From a virus (taxonomy: Duplodnaviria > Caudoviricetes), in IMG/VR virus record IMGVR_UViG_3300017991_000056, positions 32,001-96,000 of that record: a DNA stretch of 64,000 nt, one strand, 5' to 3'. The notes under the pieces were generated by a model, which was not told where the DNA came from, did no database searches, and was given only the letters and a program-made list of their open reading frames with translations. This document shows positions 2,622 to 28,767 of the stretch, piece after piece (the stretch's first letter is position 1; the number at the start of each line of letters is the position of its first letter). Position numbers and translations under genes: made by a program.

Positions 2622-5600
2622 GTGCTCGTTTACGAAGTAGTCAAGGAGTTCTACCTTGAGCAGATACGACAGACGGTCACTGTCGGGTCTGTAATCTATT
2701 GTGTGGAGAGCGACGGCCGGGCCTATGTCGCCATTGATCCTCCTCCCGTCCCGGACCCTCTTGCCAACTTCGTCGGCGGCATTGAGCTGGGTTGCGAGGG
2801 GGACTGCTTCTGCGAGTGGGTGGCGCGTCCCGACGGCCAAGAGTTTACCGAATACAGGAACACCCTTCCAGACCCGCCTCCAGACGGAGAGGGAGCAACA
2901 GGTCCCCAAGGGCCGCAGGGGAGTGGCGGCGGCCCCACCGGACCTCCAGGCCCCCAGGGTCCTCCGGGTGGCGCCACCGGGCCTGTCGGGCCTCAGGGAT
3001 TGCAGGGAGCCCAAGGCAGCCAGGGCTGGGAGGGCGAGCTTGGCCAACAGGGCTACGTCGGGGACCAGGGGGTTGTCGGCCCCCAGGGCCCGGGGCCGGT
3101 TGGCCCGCAAGGCAATCAGGGATGGCAGGGCGCCGGCCTTCAGGGGCCGGTCGGAGGGCAGGGGTCGCAGGGGCTTGTCGGGTCCGACGGGAGCCAGGGG
3201 AGCGACGGACCCACAGGAGTCGGTCTTCAGGGGCCCATTGGCCATCAGGGCGCAGATGGGTTGCAAGGAAGCGTCGGAGCCCAAGGGCCAGATGGGTTTC
3301 AGGGCTGGCAGGGAGCCGCCGGAGCCGATGGCACTCAGGGTGCCCAGGGCAATCAGGGAACTCGGGGCACCCAGGGCAATCAGGGTGGTCAGGGCGTCCA
3401 GGGCTTCCAGGGCTGGCAGGGCGCCCAGGGTCCGCAGGGCGTTGAGGGTCTTTCGGGCTGGCAGGGACCTTCGGGCAACCAGGGCTTGCAGGGTGTTGGG
3501 GATCGCGGTTTTCAAGGTGATGCCGGAAGCGTTGGCGCGACCGGCGACCAGGGGTCCCAAGGCTATGCCGGGTCGCAGGGGAAGATCGGACTCCAGGGAG
3601 TCGACGGGGCAACGGGTGTCGGGTTCCAAGGTTATGCCGGGGCACAAGGCTTGGATGGTCCGGTTGGGCCGCAGGGGTTTCAGGGCGATGGCCATCAAGG
3701 CCCGCAGGGCTCTCGGGGGCAGACGGGCGCGGACTCGACGGTGCCTGGGCCTCAAGGTTCGATCGGGGTGGGGCTTCAGGGGCCGCAGGGGAGCGCGGGA
3801 GCGACAGGTGTCGGGACGATTGGCGCGCAGGGCTCTCGTGGGCCGCAGGGCTACGATGGGGAGCGCGGCTTCCAGGGCTTGAAGGGTGCCGTCGGCGAAG
3901 ATGGGGTGCAGGGACCGGTTGGGGCTCAGGGCTTCCAGGGCGCTCAGGGCTTTGGCGTTCAAGGTTCGCGTGGTCCTCAGGGCGACACCGGCTTTCAAGG
4001 CACGCAAGGTCAGGGAGCTCAAGGCCCGCAGGGTACTCAGGGTGCCGACTCGGCGACACCGGGTCCGCAGGGGCCTCAGGGTGATGGCTATCAGGGTCCG
4101 CAGGGCTCTCAGGGTTCTGGCGCTGATGGTTCCCAGGGGCCGCAGGGTCCTGAAGGGGTTCAGGGGTCAGAGGGTGACGGTGTCCAGGGCGCCCAGGGCG
4201 TGGTTGGCTCTCAGGGACACCAGGGAGTGGTCGGTTCCGGGACTCAGGGGTTTCAAGGTTCGGACGGAACGGGTCTTCAAGGGGTGGTTGGCCCTCAGGG
4301 AGGCCAGGGGCTCACGGGTATCGGCGTTCAGGGTCCGCAGGGGATCGTCGGACAGGATGGAGTTCAGGGAGGCCAGGGCGAGCAGGGGGCCACCGGAGCC
4401 GAGGGGGTAGGAGTACAAGGGCCTGTTGGTAGCCAAGGGCCTCTTGGCAGTCAGGGTTCGCAGGGAAGTGGGGCTCAGGGCGCTCAGGGTCCGGTTGGCT
4501 TGACAGGGGTCGGAGCACAGGGAGCCGTGGGTCCGCAGGGAACAGGCGGGAGCCAGGGAGTTCCTGGGGTTCAGGGCCCGTTGGGGCCTCGGGGCCTTCA
4601 GGGTGCCCAGGGTCTTGAAGGCGTTCAGGGTTCCGCGGGCGCGACGGGGGTCGGGGTTCAGGGGCCTGTTGGCGTTCAGGGCGTGACGGGAAATCAGGGC
4701 CCGGTTGGCGCCGTTGGCGGTTTCGGGCCGCAGGGCTTGCAGGGATGGCAGGGCAATCAGGGCGTGGCTGGACAGGATGGCTCTCAGGGCGTGGTTGGCT
4801 CTCAGGGTGATCGGGGCTCGACGGGCGTCGGTGTTCAGGGGCCGCAGGGATTGGACGGCCAGGACGGCGTTCAGGGGCCTCAGGGGGCCGCAGGAGACGC
4901 AGGGGCGACCGGGGCTGGGTTCCAGGGTCCGCAGGGCTTGGAGGGCCAGGGCGGGGCACAGGGGGCTCCTGGGACGCAGGGATGGCAGGGTTCCGGTCTT
5001 CAGGGTCCGGTTGGCTTCCAGGGAGTTGTCGGCCAGGACGGGGCTCAGGGCTCGGTTGGCTTCCAGGGCGTTGTCGGAGCCCAGGGCCATCAGGGGGCCA
5101 CCGGTGTCGGGGTGCAGGGCGATTCCGGTATTCAGGGGTCGGATGGCCAGGACGGGGCTCAGGGTGCCCAGGGCGTCGCCGGACAGGACGGATTGCAGGG
5201 GCCGGCTGGCGCTCGGGGCTATCAGGGCGATGTGGGATCGACCGGGGCCGACGGCGTTCAGGGCCCGGCTGGTCCGCAGGGCATCGCCGGCCAGGACGGG
5301 GCCATCGGCTTCCAGGGTGTTCGTGGTTTCCAGGGAGATGTCGGGTCCACGGGAGCCGCCGGGGTCGGCGTTCAGGGCACTCAGGGAATCGAAGGCCAGG
5401 ATGGCGTTCAAGGGGCTCAGGGACCGCAGGGCGAGATCGGCTTGCAGGGTGTTGCCGGGCAGGACGGGTCGCAGGGAGCTCAGGGGCTTGCCGGACAGGA
5501 TGGCGACCAGGGCTTGCAGGGTGTTGCCGGGCACGACGGGAGTGACGGTTCGCAGGGCTCGGCTGGGGTTCAGGGATTTCAGGGTCGAGATGGGCAGGAT

Positions 5601-7883
5601 GGGGTCCAAGGCCTTCGCGGCCTCCAGGGCGATCTGGGATGGCAGGGCGTTGCGGGAGATGACGGCGTTCAGGGCGTCCAGGGTTGGCAGGGGTCGGGGC
5701 TTCAGGGGCCTGGTGGCATAACCGGCCCGGCGGGCGACCAGGGGCCGCAGGGCAGCCAGGGCGTCGAGGGAGCCCAGGGATATCAGGGCTATGAAGGCGA
5801 GACTGGTCCTCAGGGCTACGAGGGTCCGCAGGGTCCGGGCCCGGCGGGACCTCAAGGCCTTCAGGGTCCGCAGGGGGTTGTCGGCCAGGAAGGGGCCCAG
5901 GGCGCTCAGGGGGCTCGGGGACCGCAGGGTCTTCGGGGCTTGCAGGGCTGGCAGGGGGTCGCCGGCCAGGACGGTTCCGATGGGGCGCAGGGGGTTGTTG
6001 GGCCGCAGGGTTTCCAGGGTTGTCAAGGCCCCCGGGGTGTTCGGGGGCTTCAAGGTGGCATCGGCCAGGATGGAGCTCAAGGCGTCCAGGGTTCCGTTGG
6101 CCTTCAGGGTCTCGTGGGCCAGGACGGGGCTCAGGGCTTCCAGGGAGTCGTCGGCCAGGACGGCGTCCAGGGAGCCAAGGGGGATGTCGGGAGCCAGGGG
6201 CCTGTTGGCCCACAGGGCCTTCGTGGCTTCCAGGGCAATCAGGGCGTTCGGGGATTCCAGGGAGCCGCAGGCCAGGATGGGGCCGATGGGGCTCAGGGCT
6301 CTCAGGGAGCTGATGGCCAGGACGGGGCTCAGGGATATCAGGGTTTAGTTGGAGTGGGTTTCCAGGGGAATCAGGGGTGGCAGGGCGTGGCCGGGGAGAC
6401 TGGTGTCGGCGTTCAGGGGGCAGCTGGGCCGCAGGGTGTTCGGGGGACGCAAGGGAATCAGGGCGAGATTGGGGCTCAAGGAGTTGTCGGCGACACTGGC
6501 GTTCAGGGGGCGCAGGGTTTTCGGGGCCATCAAGGTGCTGCGGGGCAGGATGGGACACAGGGTTCCCAAGGTTCGGTTGGCTACCAGGGTGTTCGTGGCT
6601 TTCAGGGTGTTGCTGGCCAGGATGGTTTCCAAGGAAGTCAGGGACATCAAGGGTCGCAGGGTAACGCCGGACAAGACGGAGCTCAAGGCCCTCAGGGTCA
6701 AGCGGGTACAGATGGGACTCAGGGCAACCAGGGCTGGCAGGGTTTTGGCGATCAGGGAGTTCCGGGCTATCAGGGATGGCAGGGTCCGGGTGAGATTGGG
6801 GTTCAAGGACCAGATGGGGCTGTTGGCAGTCAGGGCTCGCAAGGGCCTGTCGGCAATCAAGGATATCAGGGTTCGGTTGGTGTTCAGGGTGTTGTCGGGT
6901 TTCAGGGCGTCCAGGGCCTGGTTGGCGATCAGGGAGTTCAAGGGCCACAAGGAAATCAAGGCATGGTCGGACAGGTTGGCGCTCAGGGGGATCAGGGGCT
7001 TGCTGGTCAAGATGGGGCGCAGGGAAGTCAAGGGCCTATCGGGCACCAGGGCAATCAAGGTGTTGCCGGCCTTCAGGGGTTTGTCGGCTTCCAGGGTTCG
7101 GCGGGGAGCCAGGGGCTTGCCGGGGCTCAAGGTCCGCAGGGCTTTATGGGCTTTCAGGGCAGCCAGGGCAATCAGGGCTGCCAGGGTGTTGCCGGTCAGG
7201 TGGGTGCCCAGGGCAATGACGGTTCACAGGGCGAGCGTGGTTCTCAGGGGAATCAGGGATTCCAGGGGCTGACGGGCGCTGACTCGACGGTGGCTGGTCC
7301 TCAAGGGGTCGCCGGACAAGATGGGGCTCAGGGCTGGCAGGGCAATCAGGGCTGGCAAGGGCTGTCGGCGATTGGGGTTCAAGGCCCGGATGGGTCTGTC
7401 GGCAGTCAGGGTCCGCAGGGCAACCGGGGTTGGCAAGGCGTCCAGGGAGGGCAGGGGCTGCTTGGCGGGACGGGGTATCAGGGTTCGCAGGGGCTCACGG
7501 GGTCGGGCGGCATTCAGGGGCCTCAGGGTTTCGGTATCCAGTTCGATGTTATTGCCTTGACTGCCGGAAAGAGACTCGACACGACGGGTACGTATCTTCG
7601 CGGTCCAGGGAATGTCGCGACGAACGTGGCAGGTCTTGTTGTCGCGTGTGACGCCACCATAATTGGCATCGGGGTGGCCACGAGGGGCGCCGAGACGTGG
7701 ACAGCCGAGGTAGAGAAGAACAACCTCGGAGTCACGCTGGCGTCGCTTTCGATCAGCGCCGCGCAGAGAGGCAGCCGTTTCGATCTGAATGTCGACGTCG
7801 ACGCCGGTGATGAGCTCCAGATTTACTGCAATGGCACGAACATAGCCGACCCGGTGGTCACTGTGTATTTGAAGAGGAGGTAG
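2622..7883 (+). CDS. Giant collagen-like fibre protein (~1550 aa of Gly-X-Y, mostly G-X-Q) with globular N- and C-terminal domains
   Basis: Translated Gly-X-Y triplets; AGGAGG RBS. Confidence 0.9.
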   Translation: MLVYEVVKEFYLEQIRQTVTVGSVIYCVESDGRAYVAIDPPPVPDPLANFVGGIELGCEGDCFCEWVARPDGQEFTEYRNTLPDPPPDGEGATGPQGPQGSGGGPTGPPGPQGPPGGATGPVGPQGLQGAQGSQGWEGELGQQGYVGDQGVVGPQGPGPVGPQGNQGWQGAGLQGPVGGQGSQGLVGSDGSQGSDGPTGVGLQGPIGHQGADGLQGSVGAQGPDGFQGWQGAAGADGTQGAQGNQGTRGTQGNQGGQGVQGFQGWQGAQGPQGVEGLSGWQGPSGNQGLQGVGDRGFQGDAGSVGATGDQGSQGYAGSQGKIGLQGVDGATGVGFQGYAGAQGLDGPVGPQGFQGDGHQGPQGSRGQTGADSTVPGPQGSIGVGLQGPQGSAGATGVGTIGAQGSRGPQGYDGERGFQGLKGAVGEDGVQGPVGAQGFQGAQGFGVQGSRGPQGDTGFQGTQGQGAQGPQGTQGADSATPGPQGPQGDGYQGPQGSQGSGADGSQGPQGPEGVQGSEGDGVQGAQGVVGSQGHQGVVGSGTQGFQGSDGTGLQGVVGPQGGQGLTGIGVQGPQGIVGQDGVQGGQGEQGATGAEGVGVQGPVGSQGPLGSQGSQGSGAQGAQGPVGLTGVGAQGAVGPQGTGGSQGVPGVQGPLGPRGLQGAQGLEGVQGSAGATGVGVQGPVGVQGVTGNQGPVGAVGGFGPQGLQGWQGNQGVAGQDGSQGVVGSQGDRGSTGVGVQGPQGLDGQDGVQGPQGAAGDAGATGAGFQGPQGLEGQGGAQGAPGTQGWQGSGLQGPVGFQGVVGQDGAQGSVGFQGVVGAQGHQGATGVGVQGDSGIQGSDGQDGAQGAQGVAGQDGLQGPAGARGYQGDVGSTGADGVQGPAGPQGIAGQDGAIGFQGVRGFQGDVGSTGAAGVGVQGTQGIEGQDGVQGAQGPQGEIGLQGVAGQDGSQGAQGLAGQDGDQGLQGVAGHDGSDGSQGSAGVQGFQGRDGQDGVQGLRGLQGDLGWQGVAGDDGVQGVQGWQGSGLQGPGGITGPAGDQGPQGSQGVEGAQGYQGYEGETGPQGYEGPQGPGPAGPQGLQGPQGVVGQEGAQGAQGARGPQGLRGLQGWQGVAGQDGSDGAQGVVGPQGFQGCQGPRGVRGLQGGIGQDGAQGVQGSVGLQGLVGQDGAQGFQGVVGQDGVQGAKGDVGSQGPVGPQGLRGFQGNQGVRGFQGAAGQDGADGAQGSQGADGQDGAQGYQGLVGVGFQGNQGWQGVAGETGVGVQGAAGPQGVRGTQGNQGEIGAQGVVGDTGVQGAQGFRGHQGAAGQDGTQGSQGSVGYQGVRGFQGVAGQDGFQGSQGHQGSQGNAGQDGAQGPQGQAGTDGTQGNQGWQGFGDQGVPGYQGWQGPGEIGVQGPDGAVGSQGSQGPVGNQGYQGSVGVQGVVGFQGVQGLVGDQGVQGPQGNQGMVGQVGAQGDQGLAGQDGAQGSQGPIGHQGNQGVAGLQGFVGFQGSAGSQGLAGAQGPQGFMGFQGSQGNQGCQGVAGQVGAQGNDGSQGERGSQGNQGFQGLTGADSTVAGPQGVAGQDGAQGWQGNQGWQGLSAIGVQGPDGSVGSQGPQGNRGWQGVQGGQGLLGGTGYQGSQGLTGSGGIQGPQGFGIQFDVIALTAGKRLDTTGTYLRGPGNVATNVAGLVVACDATIIGIGVATRGAETWTAEVEKNNLGVTLASLSISAAQRGSRFDLNVDVDAGDELQIYCNGTNIADPVVTVYLKRR
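2890..7535 (+). repeat. Low-complexity 9-nt codon repeat (GGN NNN CAG) encoding the collagen helix
   Basis: CAGGG recurs throughout the interval. Confidence 0.9.
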
Positions 7884-7889
7884 GCGGCA

Positions 7890-9818
7890 ATGGCCTACGA
7901 ACTTCTGCTGTCGACGACGGGGACTCAGGACCCTGTCGTGATTGAGGACCTGGGTGGCCGTTCGTTCTCCCATCCCACAACGGACTTCGATCTGCTCGCC
8001 GAGTTCCTTCCGAACGAGGTGATGAACTCGGACGACCTTCAGAGCGCGCTTGACAGTGGCTACGTGACGCTCAAGTGCAACAATGTCAGCATTGACTCTC
8101 TGATGGAGGAGGTGGTTCCGTACTTCGCGGTCCTGGCCGACGATGTCTTTGCTGCGGCGCATGAGAGGACCGGCTTCCCGAATCGCGACGAGACGACGGT
8201 TGCCTTCTCGGACTCGTCGCCGGACAGGACGTATACCATCTCCCCGGTATCGTCGGAGTTCCGGTTCTACATCAACGGGAGGAAGCATGTCAAGACCTCC
8301 GCCCAGTCGATTCAGATGGCCGACACCGAGGGTGTCCATTACATCTACTTCGACAAGGACACCCAGGTTCTGACGGAGACCACGACGTTCGTCCTGGCGA
8401 TCATCACCGAGCATGTCCTCTGCGCCATTGTCTACTGGGACGCGTCCAACAGCCAGCATGTGATTTTCGGTGACGAGCGTCATGGCATGACGATGGATGG
8501 CCAGACGCACGCCCACCTTCACACGTCGTGGGGCACCCGGTACATAAGCGGACTCGCCCTGGAGGATATAACGCCGGACGAGGATGGGAGTACCGACTCG
8601 CACGCCCAGTTCGGAGTCGAGAGCGGCGTCATCCGGGATGAGGATTTGGTCCACAGCTTGCCAGCGGAGGCCAAGCCGGCCCAGCTGCCGGTGCTCTATA
8701 AAGATGGCGCGAGCGGCTATTGGCGGTTCGACGCCGCTGACAACTTTCCGGTCAAGAACTACTCTGGCGGCAGTGGCTTTCTCGCCTATAACGAGTACAC
8801 CGGCTCGACTTGGCAGCAGGCGGAGGTGCCGGAGGGGAGCTACGTCCTTGCGCACATTGTCGCGACCAACGATCCGAACAACCCGTTCGTGGCCATACAG
8901 GGGACGTTTTTCTATACCAATATCTCGATCGCTAGAAGGGAGGCTCTGAATGAGTTCGCGGAGTTGAACCGCACGGGCATCCCTCTGATTGAGTTCGTGC
9001 TGATCGGGATTGTGATATATCAGACGAGCACGTCATACGCGAACACCCCCAAGGCGAGGATTGTCCGGACGGACGAGGGCGAAGATTACATTGACACGCG
9101 CGAGGACAAGATCGGCGTCCGCTACCTCCCGCAGGAGATCGGCTCCGTCTCGAAGTTCGTCTGGGCGCAGGCGCCGACCTTCAACGGACAGGTTGACCTT
9201 GTGGGCTGGTTCGCCGAGACGGATACTGCCGCGGCGCTGGCCAGCGGCTCCCCGGTGACCGCCTCCGAGGAGGCCTACAATTCGAGATGGGCCGTAGAAG
9301 TGGCTTCCGCTTCGGGGGCTCCCTTTACGATCCGGGTGGCGGGGACCTCCGTTGATCGCATAACTGGTGCCACGACGGCAAGCGATACCGAGGACATTTC
9401 CGTTGCTGGCAATGGCAACTACTTCACTCAGAAGGCGTGGCTCGACGCCTCGCAGTTCTCTATTGTGGAGGGCGGCAAGTCCTGTGACGTGACGCTGACC
9501 AAGGTGTCCGCATGGAACAATGCGGGGAAGAGGTTTGTCGTCACGGGGTGCCATCTTGAATGGACTCCGTCGTCCACCACATGGGGCATGCAGATACTCC
9601 TCTATAAGATCAACGCGGACGGGACGAGGACGGCCATCGATACGACTGCCTTCGCGAGCACAGACTCGATAAAGAGAGCCAAAAAGGACATCCGCGGCAG
9701 GTACAGCGTGGAGAACTACAACGAGATAGTTGACGGTGATGGGTTTGAGGGCATCGTTGTGGCTGTTCTCCAACAGTCGCTGATCGACTTCTTCCTGGAG
9801 GTCTACTACTATGAGTGA
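7890..9818 (+). CDS. Putative tail/fibre structural protein (beta-rich, multi-domain)
   Basis: 642 aa, T/S/G/aromatic-rich, follows fibre gene. Confidence 0.65.
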   Translation: MAYELLLSTTGTQDPVVIEDLGGRSFSHPTTDFDLLAEFLPNEVMNSDDLQSALDSGYVTLKCNNVSIDSLMEEVVPYFAVLADDVFAAAHERTGFPNRDETTVAFSDSSPDRTYTISPVSSEFRFYINGRKHVKTSAQSIQMADTEGVHYIYFDKDTQVLTETTTFVLAIITEHVLCAIVYWDASNSQHVIFGDERHGMTMDGQTHAHLHTSWGTRYISGLALEDITPDEDGSTDSHAQFGVESGVIRDEDLVHSLPAEAKPAQLPVLYKDGASGYWRFDAADNFPVKNYSGGSGFLAYNEYTGSTWQQAEVPEGSYVLAHIVATNDPNNPFVAIQGTFFYTNISIARREALNEFAELNRTGIPLIEFVLIGIVIYQTSTSYANTPKARIVRTDEGEDYIDTREDKIGVRYLPQEIGSVSKFVWAQAPTFNGQVDLVGWFAETDTAAALASGSPVTASEEAYNSRWAVEVASASGAPFTIRVAGTSVDRITGATTASDTEDISVAGNGNYFTQKAWLDASQFSIVEGGKSCDVTLTKVSAWNNAGKRFVVTGCHLEWTPSSTTWGMQILLYKINADGTRTAIDTTAFASTDSIKRAKKDIRGRYSVENYNEIVDGDGFEGIVVAVLQQSLIDFFLEVYYYE

Positions 9819-14975: not shown

Positions 14976-15203
14976 ATGGACGGCAAGATGATCGCGAGCG
15001 AGCTTCTCCTGGCGGCGAGGGACCTGGTCGGCGGCAAGGACGACAAGTGCGGCGAGAAGGGCTGCATCCGGCAGGTCGACGGGAAGTGGCGCGTGATGTC
15101 GGGCAAGACCGGCAAGCTGTGGCCCGCAAAGTACGACTCCGAGGGGTCCGCCAAGGACGCCCTGGACGCGTGGCACGCCAGCAGGTTCAAGGGAGCCAAG
15201 TGA
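14976..15203 (+). CDS. Small protein with helix tag (IASELLLAARDLVG)
   Basis: GAGGAGG RBS; tag motif. Confidence 0.75.
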   Translation: MDGKMIASELLLAARDLVGGKDDKCGEKGCIRQVDGKWRVMSGKTGKLWPAKYDSEGSAKDALDAWHASRFKGAK

Positions 15204-17464
15204 TGGACTCCAGAAGGTGCACGTCCGAGAGCTGCCAGGTCGCCGCGGCCAGGATGGCCCGGTTCGACGTCCCGGTTGCCTCCGTCCTGTTCGACCCGCA
15301 GGTCGAGTGGGCCAGGACGGCCTACGGCGGCGGCCGACGGGTGGCCAGGGCCATCGAGGTCGACTGGGACGAGTTCAACAGGGACGACTACCTTTTCAGC
15401 CATTGCACCATCGTCTCGTCCGTCCAGGTCGAGACCGACGAGTCCAAGCCCGGGGCCGGCTACTACATCGACCCGGTCTGTTCGGGCCTCGTGAACAACA
15501 ACGGCAATGCCTGGACCGACCCGGTCCTGCTGGCGACCTTCGGGACCTTCAGGGGCGCCCAGAACTACCTGGAGCACGTTCAGATACCGGAGCTGTCGAA
15601 GGGCAGGATACTGGACGCGGTCGTCAGGCCGGTCAGGTACAAGGACGACGAGGGGCGCGAGGCCAGTGTGAGCTACGTGGACATCCTGGTGGCGACCAGC
15701 AAGCGCCACGGCGGCCTCGTGGGCAAGATTGCCAGCGGCGAGATGAACGCGATGAGCATGGGGTGCTTCATGTCCGGCACGAGGGTGTTGATGGCTGATG
15801 GGACCACAAAGGCCATTGAAGATGTGATGGTTGGGGAGCGGGTTCGCACGCATAGCGGAGCTTCAGCCGAGGTCGAGTCGTGCAGGGTAAGATTTACGTC
15901 CGATGGCGAGACGAGACGCCTCGGGGTGAGCGGTGTGCCAGACACCTTCGTGACGGGAGAACATCCCTACTGGACGCTTACGGGCCATGATCGTTGTCCG
16001 GGATGTGGTGGCGATCTTCCGAAGAAGAGGGCTATTGCGAGCAACGGGTTGTCTGCCTTGGATAAGAAATCGTGGTGCTCTCATTCGTGTATGCAGTCCA
16101 ATTTCAACTCGTACTCGCCAGCGATGCAGGAGGTTGCGGTGTTGGTCGAGCAGGAGGTGAAGTTTGACTGGGTGAAAACAGAGGACCTTTTGGTGGGGGA
16201 TTACGTGGCGGTGCCGCTGGGGAGGCCAAAGGCCGAAAGGTCGTGTCTCGACAAGGCAAGGTGTCAGATACTTGGGTTCTATGCGGCGGAGGGGAACATC
16301 CAGAGAGACGCGAACGGCCTGGCGAGAGCGACGGAGTTCACTTTCGGGCTCGGCGAGTCGGTCGTGGAGGATTTGATCTCGGCTCTTCGCGATTGTGGGG
16401 TTGCGGATGAGGCGGTTTATCGCCAGGATAGGAAAAGGGATACCGGGGACAGCACTCGCGTTGTGGTTCATGATGCCGGGCTTGCCCTCTGGCTCCTAGA
16501 GTCCTGCGGGGAGCATTGTGATGGAAAGGTTCTGGCTCCGTGGGTGATGGGGCTTGACGACAATAGTCTCTTGGTGATTCTTGGAGCTTACATCGACGGA
16601 GACGGTCATTGTCGAAAGGACTCGGCAAGGTTTTCGACCTCGTCGTGCAGTAGGCGTCTCTCCGAGCAGGTCTGGAGCATGATGACGGCGCTCGGTATTC
16701 CGGCCTCTTTCAACGGGCCTTACGAGAAGGATGGGCGCAGGCCGTATTGGATGGTTGTGTCGCGGAAGGGCCATGCGTCGCGTTTGGAGGGTCGTTGTCG
16801 AAAGTATCGAAAGCAGCGAGCTGGTAGAGATCGCATCTCGTCTTTCCATGGGCACATGTTGAGGCGCGTGACCACCAACGAGCGCCTGGCAGGTTGCTAT
16901 CCGGTCTACAACATGCACGTGGTCAACGACCGTGGAGACCATTCCTACGTCGCGAACTGGAATGCGGTTCACAACTGCCTGGCTCATAAAATCCAGTGCT
17001 CCAAGTGCGGGGTGATCCTGGCCGACGAGGACCCCAACTGCGTCTGCATCGAGAGCGAGCTCATGCGCCCGTTCGTGGACGAGAACGGGGTGCGCAGGAT
17101 GACGGCCGAGCTGTGCGGCGTGTGCCTCTACGACCAGAACACCGGCAAGCTGGCCCGGGACGAGAACGGGAACCTGGTCGGCGATCCGAAGAGCCTGGAC
17201 TTCATCGAGGCGTCCTGGGTCGGGAGGCCGGCGTTCGGCGGGGCGGTCCTCAACCACTTCCTGTCCGACGTTCCGATGTCCGCGGCCAAGGTGCTGCGGA
17301 TGGACGCCCCGGACCTGGAGCTGGTGGCGAACGACATCTTCAGGATGCGCGTGGCGGACGCCGCGGGCATGATGGTTCTGAGGGTCGCGCGCGCGGAGAT
17401 GATCCGGCGCCGGCGGATGGAAATGGCCATGCGCGTGGCCCGGGGTTTCTGGAGGTTCGACTGA
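15203..17464 (+). CDS. Prohead (capsid maturation) serine protease containing an intein
   Basis: LEH...GRILDA...VDILVA...KIASG...SMG motifs, CSKCG zinc site, EASWV; located upstream of scaffold and capsid genes. Confidence 0.75.
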   Translation: MDSRRCTSESCQVAAARMARFDVPVASVLFDPQVEWARTAYGGGRRVARAIEVDWDEFNRDDYLFSHCTIVSSVQVETDESKPGAGYYIDPVCSGLVNNNGNAWTDPVLLATFGTFRGAQNYLEHVQIPELSKGRILDAVVRPVRYKDDEGREASVSYVDILVATSKRHGGLVGKIASGEMNAMSMGCFMSGTRVLMADGTTKAIEDVMVGERVRTHSGASAEVESCRVRFTSDGETRRLGVSGVPDTFVTGEHPYWTLTGHDRCPGCGGDLPKKRAIASNGLSALDKKSWCSHSCMQSNFNSYSPAMQEVAVLVEQEVKFDWVKTEDLLVGDYVAVPLGRPKAERSCLDKARCQILGFYAAEGNIQRDANGLARATEFTFGLGESVVEDLISALRDCGVADEAVYRQDRKRDTGDSTRVVVHDAGLALWLLESCGEHCDGKVLAPWVMGLDDNSLLVILGAYIDGDGHCRKDSARFSTSSCSRRLSEQVWSMMTALGIPASFNGPYEKDGRRPYWMVVSRKGHASRLEGRCRKYRKQRAGRDRISSFHGHMLRRVTTNERLAGCYPVYNMHVVNDRGDHSYVANWNAVHNCLAHKIQCSKCGVILADEDPNCVCIESELMRPFVDENGVRRMTAELCGVCLYDQNTGKLARDENGNLVGDPKSLDFIEASWVGRPAFGGAVLNHFLSDVPMSAAKVLRMDAPDLELVANDIFRMRVADAAGMMVLRVARAEMIRRRRMEMAMRVARGFWRFD
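15764..16975 (+). mobile_element. Intein (404 aa) with LAGLIDADG homing endonuclease
   Basis: N-terminus CFMSGTRVLMADG, block B TGEHP, ILGFYAAEG and ILGAYIDGDG, C-terminus HSYVANWNAVHN|C; lower GC. Confidence 0.95.
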
Positions 17465-20027: not shown

Positions 20028-20888
20028 ATGGCAGTTGACAACCAGACCAAGCAGGAAATCATTTCCCAGCACATCCGCACGGCAGCCGGCCGCGCTCGCC
20101 TCGCTGCGAGCATGATTCAGCCGCTCAGGCGGCGCAGGGACTACACGAGCGTAGGGAGAAAGGCGTTTTACGTCGAGGCGTTGCCCGATGGCGCCCTGCC
20201 TATCTACGACAAGGACCCGAACGTGGTGGCCTACGTCATCGGCGAAGAGGGCGAGAACATCGTCTCGGTCGCGAAGCCGAAGCGCGTGATGTTCCCGCTG
20301 TTCGAGATCGCCTCGAACCCCGAGATCCAGCTGACCGAGATCAAGCAGCGGCGCTTCGACCTGATCGAGCGCTCCGTCGACCTCGGCAAGAGCGAGATCC
20401 AGGCCGAGGAGGACCGCAAGGTCTTCGCCGTCATGGACGCGCTCGCGGCCGACCCGACGAACCCGAACCCGCCGATCCCCGTCACGGGCAACCTGACGGC
20501 GAACGCGCTGGCCGACGCCTTCGCGAACATCGAACGCACCGACATCCGTGTCGCGACCGTGTTCCTGAACGCCAAGGACTACGCCGACCTGCGCAAGTGG
20601 GACCGGGACACGCTGGACATCGAGACCCAGGCGATCCTGCTGAAGACCGGGCTCATGGCCACCCTCTGGGGCGCCAAGCTCATGGTCAGCCGCATCGTCC
20701 CCGAGGGAACGGTGTACTGCTGCGGCGAGGCCGAGTTCTTCGGCCGCATGCCCGTCCGGACGGAGCTCACGGTCCTGTCCGCCGACGACCCCAAGAACAG
20801 GCTGATCGGCTTCAGCATGTTCGAGCAGCTCGGAATTGGGGCGTATAACCCCTTTTCCCTGCAGGTCCTTCAAATTACTCGTGTTTGA
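20028..20888 (+). CDS. Major capsid protein (HK97-like fold)
   Basis: Strong RBS and codon bias; IQAEEDRKVF, LWGAKLMVSRIVP motifs; followed by strong terminator. Confidence 0.85.
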   Translation: MAVDNQTKQEIISQHIRTAAGRARLAASMIQPLRRRRDYTSVGRKAFYVEALPDGALPIYDKDPNVVAYVIGEEGENIVSVAKPKRVMFPLFEIASNPEIQLTEIKQRRFDLIERSVDLGKSEIQAEEDRKVFAVMDALAADPTNPNPPIPVTGNLTANALADAFANIERTDIRVATVFLNAKDYADLRKWDRDTLDIETQAILLKTGLMATLWGAKLMVSRIVPEGTVYCCGEAEFFGRMPVRTELTVLSADDPKNRLIGFSMFEQLGIGAYNPFSLQVLQITRV

Positions 20889-24214: not shown

Positions 24215-24601
24215 ATGTCAACGAAGCGGAAGCAGGACAAGAGGCGCGCCCGCGCCAAGAGCGTGGTCAAGGCGAAGAACAGGCTGAAGGCGAAGCCGAG
24301 GCCGAGGTTCTATCTGGAGGCGGACCTTCCCGGGGGCGTCGGGTGGAAGAAGGTCATGGCCTTCAGGAAGATGGAGGACGTGGACGCCTATGTCGAGTCC
24401 GTCGAGGACATCAGGAGGAGGAATGCCTCCGAGATCGTGAGGGGGCGCGTGGTCATGGCCTCGACTGGGCGAGTGGTGGCGGTGATCGAGCCGCACGAGA
24501 TCGAGGGGCCGGAAATCCTGGGGGCTTCCGGGCATGTCCGGGGCCGAGGGAAGAAGGAAAATGCCGAGGGGGCTTTGGAAAAGGAGGCCGAAGGTGTATA
24601 A
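24215..24601 (+). CDS. Basic hypothetical protein
   Basis: AGGAGG RBS before ATG 24215. Confidence 0.65.
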   Translation: MSTKRKQDKRRARAKSVVKAKNRLKAKPRPRFYLEADLPGGVGWKKVMAFRKMEDVDAYVESVEDIRRRNASEIVRGRVVMASTGRVVAVIEPHEIEGPEILGASGHVRGRGKKENAEGALEKEAEGV

Positions 24602-24710
24602 TGTCCGTGAGAGGGCGACGGTTTCCCAGAGCTTCTTTGAGAAAATCTTCTCGCCGCGTGGAAAACCGTCCTCTTTTGGCAATATGGTTGGTGAGCGAGT
24701 TCTTTGAAAA
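24574..24710 (+). promoter_or_regulatory. Sigma70-like promoter (TATAAT 24597-24602) plus leader hairpin and boxA-like GTTCTTTGAAAA (24699-24710)
   Basis: Sequence matches; sits upstream of the stable-RNA cluster. Confidence 0.55.
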
Positions 24711-24714
24711 TCGA

Positions 24715-25312
24715 ATGAGACAGCGTTCCTGGCTCGGGGTGCCGTTCTGAGTGCAACGAAGCCAGGGGGTCTGGGAGAGAGGACGCGCACCCCGGCGGCT
24801 AGCGTCCAAGTAGCGAATCGAGCTGCGCCATAGAGCGTGGCCGCCCCTTCGGGAGGGCTGGCGAACGGAACGGCGGGATCGGGCTCTGCGAAAAGTGGGC
24901 ATGCCGAAGCGAGGCAGGTTGCCGGTAGGCGAGAGCCACGCCGGAATCGTACGTGGCCCATGACCGAGCCTCCGAACGAAGGGTTCAAGGGTGGACATGG
25001 AGAAGGACGCTCCGAACCAGGGACGCTGGAGAATGAACAAGATTTTCCGGCACCGGCCCGACCCGGACAGCTCCGGGCTCAGGGCGGTGAGCGCGAAAGG
25101 GGTCCTCTAGTAGGGATCGGGACAGCGATGCGCGGTTTGAGTCCGTCGCCCGAAGCACGCATGGGCAAGCGTACCACGATCGGGACAGCGATGCGCGGTT
25201 TGAGTCCGTCGCCCGAAGCACGCATGGGCAAGCGTACCACGACCGAACGCGGGTTCCGAGTACGACGCGTCGTCACTCTCGGACAAGGCCGAGGCGGGCG
25301 GGTTGCCGGGAT
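24715..25312 (+). ncRNA. Candidate large structured non-coding RNA of unknown family
   Basis: No credible CDS; UUCG/GNRA-capped hairpins; long-range helix 25046-25063 with 25293-25311; between boxA and tmRNA; boundaries approximate. Confidence 0.5.
25115..25242 (+). repeat. Perfect 63-bp tandem duplication
   Basis: gatcgggacagcgatgcgcggtttgagtccgtcgcccgaagcacgcatgggcaagcgtaccac x2. Confidence 0.95.
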
Positions 25313-25318
25313 TAACTT

Positions 25319-25713
25319 GGGGGCGAAATGGTATCGACTGGCGCGGCTGAGCTTGAGACTGCATGTGGAGGATGACCGTTGGCCTCCTGAATCATCGGTC
25401 GCAGAGACAACTGCAAAAAACATTCTTTCCTTCCCTGGTCGGCCTCGGCTGGCCATCGCTGCCTGAGAAGGCGGCGCGGGTGTCCCTGCCTGACGCCGAT
25501 AGGGGTCGGGGGCAACGACATCGGTGGACAAGCCATGGAGAGACATGCTGACGAGGAGCACGGAAAGACGTCTCTGGCAGCCTGGAAAGACGGGACGGGG
25601 CCTGCCGACGGGGCCTGAGCCGGACTAGACATCCGGCAAGCCTTCGGCTAAGCATGTAGATGTCCGAGGGACGTCCGTTCAGGACCCGGGTTCGACTCCT
25701 GGCGCCTCCACCA
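25319..25713 (+). ncRNA. ssrA: tmRNA; tag peptide (A)AKNILSFPGRPRLAIAA* at 25413-25466
   Basis: 5' GGGGGCG...TCGAC pairs with 3' CGCCTCC-ACCA including G3.U; T-arm GGGTTCGACTCC; tag ends in AA. Confidence 0.93.
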
Positions 25714-25756
25714 AGTTTTCGATCATGAGCATTATCGCGAGAGGTACTTTTTTAAT

Positions 25757-25833
<77 letters not shown>

Positions 25834-25844
25834 AACTTTTAGTA

Positions 25845-25881
25845 CCGTAGGTCGCAGGTTCGATTCCTGCCGGGGGTGCCG
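25845..25881 (+). pseudogene. 3'-half tRNA fragment (variable loop, T-arm, acceptor strand)
   Basis: AGGTC-GCAGGTTCGATTCCTGC-CGGGGGTGCC with no 5' half. Confidence 0.65.
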
Positions 25882-25888
25882 ATGATGC

Positions 25889-25985
25889 GGCTCTGGCAAG
25901 TTACCCTCCCCTCCCCTCCCCCCTTCCCTACTTGCCAGGGCCCTTTTTTTTTGGCCGTCGGTTCGCCGACGGCCATTTTTTCTTT
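25889..25985 (+). terminator. Two tandem intrinsic terminators closing the RNA cluster
   Basis: ggctctggcaagt...acttgccagggcc+T9, and ggccgtcgg-ttcg-ccgacggcc+T tract. Confidence 0.75.
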
Positions 25986-26005
25986 GATACGGGGGACTGT
26001 GGTAG
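25976..26005 (+). promoter_or_regulatory. Putative phage promoter motif, copy 4
   Basis: TTCTTTGATA-N12-GTAG. Confidence 0.5.
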
Positions 26006-26029
26006 AGACCACCTTCAAAGGAGGATGAT

Positions 26030-26158
26030 ATGAGACCGCAGCCGACCGCGACCAGGCCCCAGGGCCTTCTCCGACCCCGTCCGGCCCGGGCCGAGCTCTC
26101 CGCCGGCCCCGTCGTCCAGGGCACGTGCGTGGCCCAGGTGATCGGAGGTGGCCGATGA
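26030..26158 (+). CDS. Possible 42-aa leader/small protein
   Basis: AAGGAGG RBS; ATGA overlap with next gene. Confidence 0.45.
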   Translation: MRPQPTATRPQGLLRPRPARAELSAGPVVQGTCVAQVIGGGR

Positions 26159-27461: not shown

Positions 27462-27533
27462 AGAACGAAGCGATTCTCCCGCCTAGCGGTTGATTGTTAG
27501 GGCGGTTCTTTGGCCGTCGGCGGAAAGGTCGCC

Positions 27534-27911
27534 ATGAACGATGCGGCAATGGATGGAAACCCCCTCAAGAGGGTTTTGATACTTGACGACGACAGAAAGC
27601 TCCGAGATATCATGTCGAGGATCGTGAGGCGTCTCGGCATGGAGCCGTTTTCGACCGACGACGGAAGGGCGGCGATCCATGAGCACTCGGAGAGGCGGTT
27701 CTCCGCTATGTTCGTCGACCTTCTGATGCCGAAGATGCGAGGCGAGGAGTTCATCTTGGAGGCGCGCCAGGTCAATGGGAGTCCGGATCGGCCCTTGGTG
27801 GTCGTGATGACGGGACTCCAGGACGTGACGCTGGCGGGCCTCGACGTTGACGGCGTTATCCTGAAGCCTTTCGGGGTCCGCGAGGTCGCGAAGGTGCTTG
27901 AGGAGATATAG
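27534..27911 (+). CDS. Single-domain response regulator (CheY-like receiver)
   Basis: VLILDDD, FVDLLMPKMRG, VVMTG, LKPF all present. Confidence 0.9.
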   Translation: MNDAAMDGNPLKRVLILDDDRKLRDIMSRIVRRLGMEPFSTDDGRAAIHEHSERRFSAMFVDLLMPKMRGEEFILEARQVNGSPDRPLVVVMTGLQDVTLAGLDVDGVILKPFGVREVAKVLEEI

Positions 27912-27920
27912 GAGGCGGAC

Positions 27921-28214
27921 ATGAGCCCGTTGACCCAGGCGGAGAGGATGTCTCGGCTGCTCCAGGTATACGGAGGGTGGGGTATGTGCGCGATACTGAT
28001 CATTGGCATCGTCGCCCTCTACTGGAGCATGGGAAGGGTGATATCCCAGCAGAACGCCCAGCTCCAGGCCCTCCTGCGGGAGACGGCTACGGTCTTGGCG
28101 GAGGCCAGGGATACCAATCGCGATGTCGCGGAGACCAACAGGACGACCAGCAACACGCTGGAGAGGGTGGGTCCTCAGCTCGTTGTCCTTGAGCAGCTCC
28201 AGCGAAATCGCTAG
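27921..28214 (+). CDS. Holin-like protein (one TM segment plus coiled coil)
   Basis: Hydrophobic GWGMCAILIIGIVALYW; context. Confidence 0.5.
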   Translation: MSPLTQAERMSRLLQVYGGWGMCAILIIGIVALYWSMGRVISQQNAQLQALLRETATVLAEARDTNRDVAETNRTTSNTLERVGPQLVVLEQLQRNR

Positions 28215-28224
28215 GAGGATTGAG

Positions 28225-28767
28225 ATGACTTTGACACTGAGGTCGGGGTTCGTGAGTGGGTTGAGGGATCTCGACAGCGAACTGCGAAACTTCTTTGCTG
28301 CCTCGACGTCGTACCGGGCGGCTTCCGGCAGGGGGAGTGTCATCCTGATCCTGGATGAGGACGAGGAGCTGGGCCGGCTTGTCAGGTTCCTGGCGGACCG
28401 GACGAAGATGGAGGTGCGCGTGGTGTGCATGTCGGACCCGCGTGCCGCCAGGAAGTTTATCGAGGATTCCGGCGAGTCGTCCGTGAAGGCGGTCATCGTC
28501 GACGTCGAGCTGCTGAGCGGGACGGGCGCGTCGTTCTACTCGTGGGTTCGGAGTGAGGAGCCTGACGTGCCGATCTTTATGAAGGGCACGAGGAAGCAGA
28601 TAGTTGAGTTCACCGGCAACGGCAACGGCAGCGGCAACGGCAATGGCTGGAGGTTCGGGACGTTCGTCCTGGAGGACACGACGGACATGGACTATGTCAG
28701 GGCGCTGGGGTTCCCGAGCAGGTGTGACAAGCTCGTGCGGGAGTTCCGGCACGAGCATGCCGGATGA
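28225..28767 (+). CDS. Degenerate receiver-domain protein
   Basis: ILILDEDEE...VIVDVELL.GTG...PDVPIFM; lacks the KP motif. Confidence 0.6.
   Translation: MTLTLRSGFVSGLRDLDSELRNFFAASTSYRAASGRGSVILILDEDEELGRLVRFLADRTKMEVRVVCMSDPRAARKFIEDSGESSVKAVIVDVELLSGTGASFYSWVRSEEPDVPIFMKGTRKQIVEFTGNGNGSGNGNGWRFGTFVLEDTTDMDYVRALGFPSRCDKLVREFRHEHAG

Follow-up and report, generated by a model that had tools for sequence, protein, structure and literature searches.

The non-coding gap that precedes a transfer-messenger RNA (tmRNA) gene in a Caudoviricetes genome holds an element of ~320 bases that has a homologue in one other phage and probably folds as RNA. The element lies in IMG/VR virus record IMGVR_UViG_3300017991_000056, which has 133,403 bases and is estimated to be 39% complete; we analysed its bases 32001–96000, a stretch of 64,000 nucleotides (nt) referred to here as the window, and give positions within it. 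Nearly all genes of the window lie on the + strand, and it includes a major head protein gene (20028–20885; phrog_2522, E 3e-54) and collagen-like tail fibre genes. The phage is found at sediment and seawater sites. An earlier note on this DNA had proposed one large non-coding RNA of ~600 nt filling the gap. We find that the gap is two things, a conserved 5′ part (part 1, 24713–25030, + strand) and a lineage-specific 3′ part (part 2, 25046–25311, + strand). The proposal survives in that the gap is non-coding and its 5′ half is conserved, with a fold signal, in two phages, but a single RNA of that length is not supported. In our preferred explanation, to which we give a probability of roughly one half, the 5′ half functions as a folded leader RNA that is transcribed together with the tmRNA and released by RNase P, with a basal rod that would be a platform for binding or processing, and the 3′ half is lineage-specific filler.

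A non-coding gap heads a tmRNA–tRNA unit

The gap measures 717 bases (24602–25318), from the stop of the upstream gene (24601) to the tmRNA 5′ end. GC content across the three codon positions is flat within it (0.57/0.60/0.59 and 0.65/0.61/0.70), whereas the flanking genes have 0.80–0.92 at third and 0.34–0.45 at second positions. Because the gap is without codon-position GC bias and its neighbours are strongly biased, we conclude that it is real and non-coding, which bears out the earlier report of a stretch without the phage's codon pattern. The gap was also said to head a tmRNA–tRNA unit, and it does: a bona fide tmRNA gene stands at its end (25319–25713, + strand; tag AKNILSFPGRPRLAIAA; ARAGORN, and RF00023 at 107.2 bits), followed by tRNA-Arg(CCT) (25757–25833, + strand; ARAGORN and Rfam). 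The hairpins named in the earlier note are all present (CCTGGCT/AGCCAGG at 24730–36/24761–67, CCCC-TTCG-GGAGGG near 24845 and GGC-GAGA-GCC near 24921).

The Rfam scan that the note had suggested confirmed the tmRNA and tRNA and assigned no family to the gap. With Rfam 15 at gathering scores, the 64 kb gave these two only, the presence of GOLLD, ROOL, 6S, Y_RNA and others in the library being unchecked; the link to GOLLD and ROOL raised in the note thus gained no Rfam match. At E-values up to 10, nothing credible fell in the gap when 24400–26100 was searched (the top match was tmRNA_permuted, 16.5 bits, E 0.97, 25159–25466), and 24690–25320 gave a single match of 13.1 bits and E 6.9.

Part 1 is conserved in a second phage

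Relatives were gathered through the head protein, which has 131 relatives in IMG/VR; the best 80 of 131 were used, at 67–94% amino-acid identity. BLAST with the gap against these loci had a sole match, the locus L049, whose positions 5379–5692 are homologous to part 1 (identity 73% across 90 nt and 71% across 72 nt). The two sequences share identical stretches of 17, 14 and 12 nt, and the similarity is concentrated in two blocks. Block A (24747–24788, + strand; alignments A1 and A5) comprises an exact 17-mer, CTGAGTGCAACGAAGCC, at 24747–24763 and GAGAGGACGCGC at 24777–24788, with 28 of 35 positions identical (80%), and is unique in the genome. Block B (24952–24996, + strand) contains an exact 14-mer, GAGCCTCCGAACGA, at 24966–24979, followed by GGTGGA, with 33/44 identical (75%). 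Between them lies a variable apical region of ~165 nt (24789–24951, + strand), where identity falls to 45% (70 of 154 aligned positions, with 15 gap columns); the two strands of the predicted basal rod are identical at 20/31 and 18/30 positions.

The head protein gene provides a neutral yardstick. The head proteins of the two phages are 92.7% identical, and their four-fold sites agree at 73 of 137 (53%), against 44% expected by composition, so that synonymous sites of the capsid gene are near saturation. Blocks A and B are conserved above this neutral level. Because their identity is 75–80% against 53% at the capsid four-fold sites, the blocks are under constraint, and the apical region, at synonymous-site level, is not. 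A search of the 133-kb record for small RNA targets, allowing up to one mismatch, found nothing complementary to blocks A and B.

Further searches added no third member. The 35 records underlying the related loci were searched whole with RF00023 (the other 45 were contigs already covered entirely or nearly so), and 18 had a tmRNA above the cut-off; three pairs among these 18 loci are identical upstream, leaving 15 distinct loci. ARAGORN on the best 80 of 131 loci found a tmRNA in L024 and L049 only. BLAST against the 35 whole records gave no further copy of the element, a match in G001 and G002 falling in a gene, and the 133-kb record holds no second copy. A covariance model, R1, run over 654 kb recovered only the window and L049 sequences, and nhmmer returned no further homologue. 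Patterns behaved likewise: the block A 17-mer hit the L049 contig and, by chance, a coding gene (L092); a gapped block A pattern hit the L049 contig only among metagenome contigs and nothing among genome contigs; and the block B pattern hit L049 only among viral contigs, its two other matches lying in coding DNA of Acidobacteriota metagenome-assembled genomes, about the number expected by chance. The gap had no blastn match in the phage collection, a pattern from 24660–24687 had 0 matches, and the flanking proteins led to one distant locus in the viral collection, which has no tmRNA. The first 20 bases of the tmRNA picked out 9 unrelated phage tmRNA loci with dissimilar upstream regions. In all, the element was found in 2 of the 19 tmRNA-bearing phages of the clade, the window included; of three other long leaders in the clade (L049, L024 and L096), only that of L049 resembles the window's. 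Excerpts of PMC7162821 mention phage tmRNAs and SmpB and do not mention a leader.

Part 1 has a fold signal in both phages

Folded alone, 24713–25045 has a minimum free energy (MFE) well below that of its shuffles (z −3.04; 0/100 shuffles as good). The L049 counterpart behaves in the same way (z −2.93, or −3.15 with its 3′ hairpin; 0/100 as good in each case), and in both phages the signal exceeds that of the tmRNA itself (z −2.03). A consensus fold of window part 1 with L049 5379–5700 (alignment A5, RNAalifold) reached −74.55 kcal/mol with 64 pairs, against −45.8 ± 5.1 kcal/mol for 150 column-shuffled alignments, none of which did as well (z −5.63). The − strand consensus reached −48.25 kcal/mol (z −2.87), and the + strand, which is the strand of the tmRNA, is thus favoured by 26 kcal/mol.

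The best-defined feature of this fold is a closing helix, P1, in which 24722–24732 pairs with 25017–25027 (+ strand). Its 11 base pairs are predicted independently in both phages at the same alignment columns, starting ~10 nt past an upstream promoter-like motif in each, and they have undergone two double compensatory changes (A-U to G-C and G-C to A-U) and two one-sided compatible ones, with 0 broken pairs. The consensus lengthens P1 to a rod of ~25 pairs and pairs block A with block B (columns 69–74 with 262–267), although these pairs are invariant and therefore uninformative. The picture that would fit the predictions has P1 closing a basal rod, blocks A and B opposite each other above the rod, and a free apical domain on top. 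On this modelling, part 1 probably folds as RNA.

Part 2 is a lineage-specific stretch

In L049, ~45 nt stand in place of window positions 25046–25311. Part 2 is closed by the long-range helix that the earlier note had pointed out, and this helix does exist as 14 base pairs between 25046–25060 and 25295–25311 (duplex −27.7 kcal/mol; pair probabilities at least 0.9 when 24715–25318 is folded alone). Its strength is at chance level, however, a long-range 17-mer duplex equal to the best real one arising in 6 of 30 shuffles of this GC-rich sequence, and it is missing from L049. Part 2 as a whole folds no better than chance.

Within it lies a perfect tandem duplication (25115–25240, + strand) of a 63-nt unit, 25115–25177 and 25178–25240 being 100% identical. 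Each unit carries a weak T-loop-like hairpin and folds at z +0.84. The contig of the 63-nt unit and its flanks have depths of 11.7/11.3, 26.3/13.3 and 36.5/14.1 in three DNA runs, which hints that the copy number of the unit varies. The best reading of part 2 is lineage-specific filler of ~270 bases with a recent tandem duplication.

A promoter-like motif may mark the start of the leader

Immediately upstream of part 1, comparison with related tmRNA loci revealed a clade-conserved, promoter-like motif, GTTCTTTGAAAAT (24699–24711, + strand). Of the 18 related tmRNA loci, 10 have the form G[TC]TCTTTGA starting 12–19 nt ahead of the tmRNA's first base; the window's motif stands ~605 nt ahead. The distance is also long in L049 and L099 (~370 nt), in L096 (~517 nt) and in L024 and L101 (~480 nt), the last two having a variant form. 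Because the motif lies 12–19 nt ahead of the tmRNA in those 10 relatives, the leader appears to be sequence lodged between the usual start signal of the tmRNA and the tmRNA itself.

Seven copies of TTCTTTGA occur in the 133-kb record, 6 of them on the + strand and most intergenic, where we estimate ~1 from composition; three stand 35–50 nt ahead of start codons (12533, 25980 and 42842). Among relatives totalling 822 kb, with strands set by the direction of the head gene, the motif falls 34 times on the + and 6 times on the − strand (some loci being near-duplicates), and 32% of its sites lie in stop-free spans shorter than 300 nt, as compared with 10% of random sites. These patterns suggest a signal with a promoter role, at a position compatible with neither a standard −10 nor a standard −35 element.

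Two further sets of copies were seen. A degenerate second copy in the window, CTTCTTTGAGAAAAT, lies at 24631–24646, 67 nt upstream of the main one and within the loop of a hairpin at 24617–24670. The 253-kb relative L065 has three GTTCTTTGAAA copies (17744, 18149 and 18355) inside a 17-tRNA array, each followed by 200–400 nt without long open reading frames (ORFs) and without an Rfam match; they may be further motif-led non-coding units.

How the leader might act, and competing explanations

Under the preferred explanation, transcription would start a few bases past the motif at 24699–24711 and continue past leader, tmRNA and tRNA as far as a pair of terminator-like hairpins with T runs, which close the RNA operon (25889–25975, + strand; inverted repeats I7 and I12, of which a terminator scan called 25952–25975). 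RNase P would cut at G1 of the tmRNA and release the leader, whose basal rod, with conserved blocks in its internal loops, could act as a protein-binding platform or as a processing stem. Transcription, processing and any function of the leader are what we infer from the comparisons above; among seven sequencing runs listed for this sequence, none was of RNA.

Several observations weigh against this explanation. The gap as a whole does not fold better than its shuffles (z +0.43; 12 of 20 equally or more stable), and seven sub-segments of it gave z-scores between −0.69 and +1.90. Over the whole part 1 structure, compensatory pairs number 15 against a shuffled mean of 13.1, a level reached by 48 of 150 shuffles; the homologue collection and covariation analysis proposed in the earlier note thus delivered one homologue with P1 kept and no excess of compensatory pairs over the null, and true covariation is not demonstrable because the family consists of two sequences. 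The two independent MFE folds have nothing in common beyond P1, which makes up 11 of their 102 and 100 pairs. The − strand also beats its shuffles (z −3.07 in the window and −2.32 in L049), and part of the fold signal is for this reason a DNA-level inverted repeat. In L024 and L096, the leaders at this position cannot be aligned with that of the window and are not unusually stable, folding at z +0.56 and −0.80. No such leader is present at 10 of the 18 related tmRNA loci, which makes it dispensable for tmRNA function, and several motif copies in the relatives lie inside genes.

Some of these points would also be expected if the gap were inert spacer, that is, one or two insertions bounded by inverted repeats (relic DNA, or DNA resembling miniature inverted-repeat transposable elements, MITEs) between the tmRNA promoter and the tmRNA, with the repeats themselves giving the fold signal. 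Inverted repeats bound both parts (P1, and 25046–25060/25295–25311) as terminal repeats bound MITEs, the − strand folds well too, the element is sparsely distributed with unrelated sequence in its place in L024 and L096, part 2 contains a perfect tandem duplication with a possibly variable copy number, and GAGA stands on both sides of part 1 in the window. That flank, a possible target-site duplication, is missing in L049, however, and no dispersed copy turned up in the 133-kb record, the 35 related records or the 654 kb covered by model R1. The repeat arms differ between the two phages and yet remain complementary, whereas ends bound by a transposase would keep their sequence; the internal blocks exceed the neutral level of conservation, and the consensus fold prefers the + strand by the margin given above. 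We consider an inert spacer unlikely, although it deserves to be taken seriously.

Next in line is the view that the leader serves only the tmRNA precursor, as an RNase III-type processing site or as a folding or attenuation element that sets the tmRNA level, without yielding a stable product. The leader is co-linear with the tmRNA, on the same strand, between motif and tmRNA, and it contains a long imperfect stem; moreover, its last bases, AACTT, could lengthen the acceptor stem of the tmRNA if they paired with the AAGTT that comes after its CCA (inverted repeat I16). Most relatives, on the other hand, do without any leader, the exact 17- and 14-nt blocks in internal loops exceed what a cleavage stem needs, and the terminator scan called no hairpin downstream of the element and ahead of the tmRNA that could serve attenuation. 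A role of this kind alone is rather unlikely.

The genes beyond the tmRNA raise a different idea, namely that part 1 is a Y-RNA-like partner of Ro60 (Rsr), in which the closing stem and the CGAA-containing blocks would form the Ro60 binding site and the variable apex an effector module. Of the 35 related records, 13 encode a Ro60 orthologue according to a Pfam TROVE search, and in 9 of these 13 (G001, G002, G003, G006, G007, G009, G011, G013 and G015; loci L133–L136) it lies 1.3–2.8 kb downstream of the tmRNA on the same strand, so that a cluster of tmRNA, tRNA and Ro60 recurs in this phage clade. The one contig with a homologue of part 1 belongs to this group: in L049, the element (5379–5692) is followed by the tmRNA, a free-standing LAGLIDADG endonuclease gene (6167–6673), tRNA-Met, a 610-amino-acid TROVE + vWA_Ro60 protein (7884–9716) and a methyltransferase/GT-D gene, which places Ro60 2.2 kb downstream of the element. 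In the window, tRNA-Arg stands almost directly before the homologous methyltransferase/GT-D gene, and neither the Pfam profile nor the L049 Ro60 protein found a TROVE match in the 133 kb of this 39% complete record.

According to excerpts of Chen et al. (2014; PMC4201824), the genes of bacterial and phage Y RNAs lie no more than 4 kb from Ro60 and on its strand, and the RNAs have a GNCGAAN0-1G motif close to the 5′ end, a stem formed by their paired ends and a tRNA-like domain with near-invariant T and D stem-loops; the mycobacteriophages named there have the Ro60 gene together with tRNA genes. Part 1 resembles these RNAs, and YrlA, in that its ends would pair in a stem (P1 and the consensus rod), in that the L049 element is less than 4 kb from Ro60 on the same strand (the window contig being without Ro60) and in that its clade carries Ro60 with tRNA genes as the mycobacteriophages of PMC4201824 do in those excerpts; the 63-nt units of part 2 add T-loop-like hairpins. 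The differences are greater in number. The GNCGAAN0-1G motif is absent from the conserved blocks, which read AACGAAG and TCCGAAC, and its exact matches, GGCGAACG (24859) and GCCGAAG (24904), fall within the variable region and are not conserved in L049. No tRNA model matched the gap at E up to 10, part 1 has no detected T or D stem-loops and no sequence similarity to Y RNAs, and its ~320 nt are about three times the size of those RNAs. The element is also missing from 12 of the 13 Ro60-bearing relatives. We do not file the element as a Y RNA, because the motif is missing from its conserved blocks and a tRNA-like domain was undetected, and we regard a Y-RNA-like role as improbable.

That the gap encodes a small protein can practically be set aside, since the one candidate, a + strand open frame of 209 amino acids (24837–25466), extends into the tmRNA and has no codon-position bias, the tblastx alignment of part 1 to L049 switches frames and includes stops so that no frame is conserved, the alignment gaps (lengths 3, 3, 2 and 1, 5, 4, 1, 1) do not keep to multiples of three, and tblastx of the gap against 125 loci, run as a pseudogene test, gave nothing consistent and no protein-level similarity.

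Genes and repeats around the gap

Directly upstream of the gap lies a gene for a small basic protein of 127 amino acids (24215–24601, + strand; ORF and codon bias). The protein matched no Pfam or PHROG family and had no usable Atlas neighbour. Its homologues sit in this position in L049 and L024 (alignment A2) and in L096 (tblastn); a collection search with the alignment returned the L049 contig only. A sigma-70-like promoter match overlaps the end of the gene (24575–24602, + strand; TTGGAA, a 16-nt spacer and TATAAT, 10/12), a consensus match found once where 0.3 are expected in shuffles. It is followed by the hairpin at 24617–24670 (+ strand; inverted repeat I8), which has 12-nt arms of 92% complementarity and precedes CTCTTTTGG; the hairpin was not called by the terminator scan and may be where the transcript of the upstream gene ends. 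Further contigs, with a depth close to that of the phage, match 33 bases of 24654–24687 in three DNA runs and then continue into similar but different sequence, and one contig carries the 33 bases in tandem. A co-occurring relative may be the source, or a paralogous regulatory region in a part of the genome that was not assembled.

Downstream, 14 nt after tRNA-Arg(CCT), starts a fragment like the 3′ half of a tRNA (25847–25880, + strand; direct repeat D3, 79% identical to tRNA-Arg 25799–25832). In two DNA runs, a low-depth contig carries the tRNA from its 5′ side as far as 25784, then 15 other letters and then this fragment; it looks like another tRNA-Arg(CCT) in the same samples and may stem from recombination or integration at the tRNA. 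Just past the RNA operon are two genes with response-regulator receiver domains (27510–27908 and 28123–28764), and the 805-amino-acid ORF at 15047–17461 has Hint and LAGLIDADG domains and probably encodes a protein with an intein. Among the relatives, L111 (identically in L112) has a Twister-P5 ribozyme match at 912–988 (38.0 bits; gathering score 37.6) within an ORF-poor stretch of ~1.3 kb upstream of the tmRNA, with a sub-threshold tRNA-like match (27.6 bits) at 738–807.

Relation to known RNAs and significance

GOLLD and ROOL are large non-coding RNAs of 580–800 nt found beside tRNA genes in phages or prophages. The element shares with them the setting, a large non-coding stretch adjoining tmRNA and tRNA-Arg in a phage genome; it differs in having no Rfam 15 match, a conserved part of ~320 nt and two known members. 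In phage T4, the tRNA gene cluster gives rise to stable 'species 1 and 2' RNAs of unknown function, processed from a common precursor. The leader would likewise be an RNA within a phage tRNA operon, released from a common precursor, although the T4 RNAs are smaller. The 5′ leader of tmRNA precursors is removed by RNase P, and known leaders are short. Ours occupies the same place, between promoter and mature 5′ end, but is ~600 nt long, with half of it conserved and, on prediction, structured. The predicted rod-like fold, with conserved sequence in internal loops, resembles that of 6S RNA; the element has no Rfam match and is larger and branched.

The element falls in no described family, and with two members it is a candidate for a class, not an established one. 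A bolder proposal, which we hold to be doubtful, would make part 1 the first member of a new class of structured phage RNA, ~320 nt long, with an end-closing rod, two conserved internal-loop blocks and a free apical domain. Forming the 5′ portion of the tmRNA precursor, it would be a protein scaffold in an RNA-surveillance locus that in relatives comprises tmRNA, tRNAs and Ro60, a large analogue of Y RNA that is not tRNA-like and whose partner could be a Ro60 of phage or host origin or the small basic protein.

Large phages commonly encode a tmRNA, and we know of no study of how phage tmRNAs are expressed. In this clade, a shared motif appears to mark the starts of tmRNA and tRNA genes, and a subset of the phages carries several hundred extra bases between motif and tmRNA, of which one such insert is conserved and probably folded. 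Ro60 usually lies just past the tmRNA of the clade, which makes the element's surroundings a possible gene cluster for RNA quality control. If the RNA is not stable and protein-binding, the locus would be an example of GC-rich spacers mimicking structure; if it is, a new large non-coding RNA would be added to the short list known from phages.

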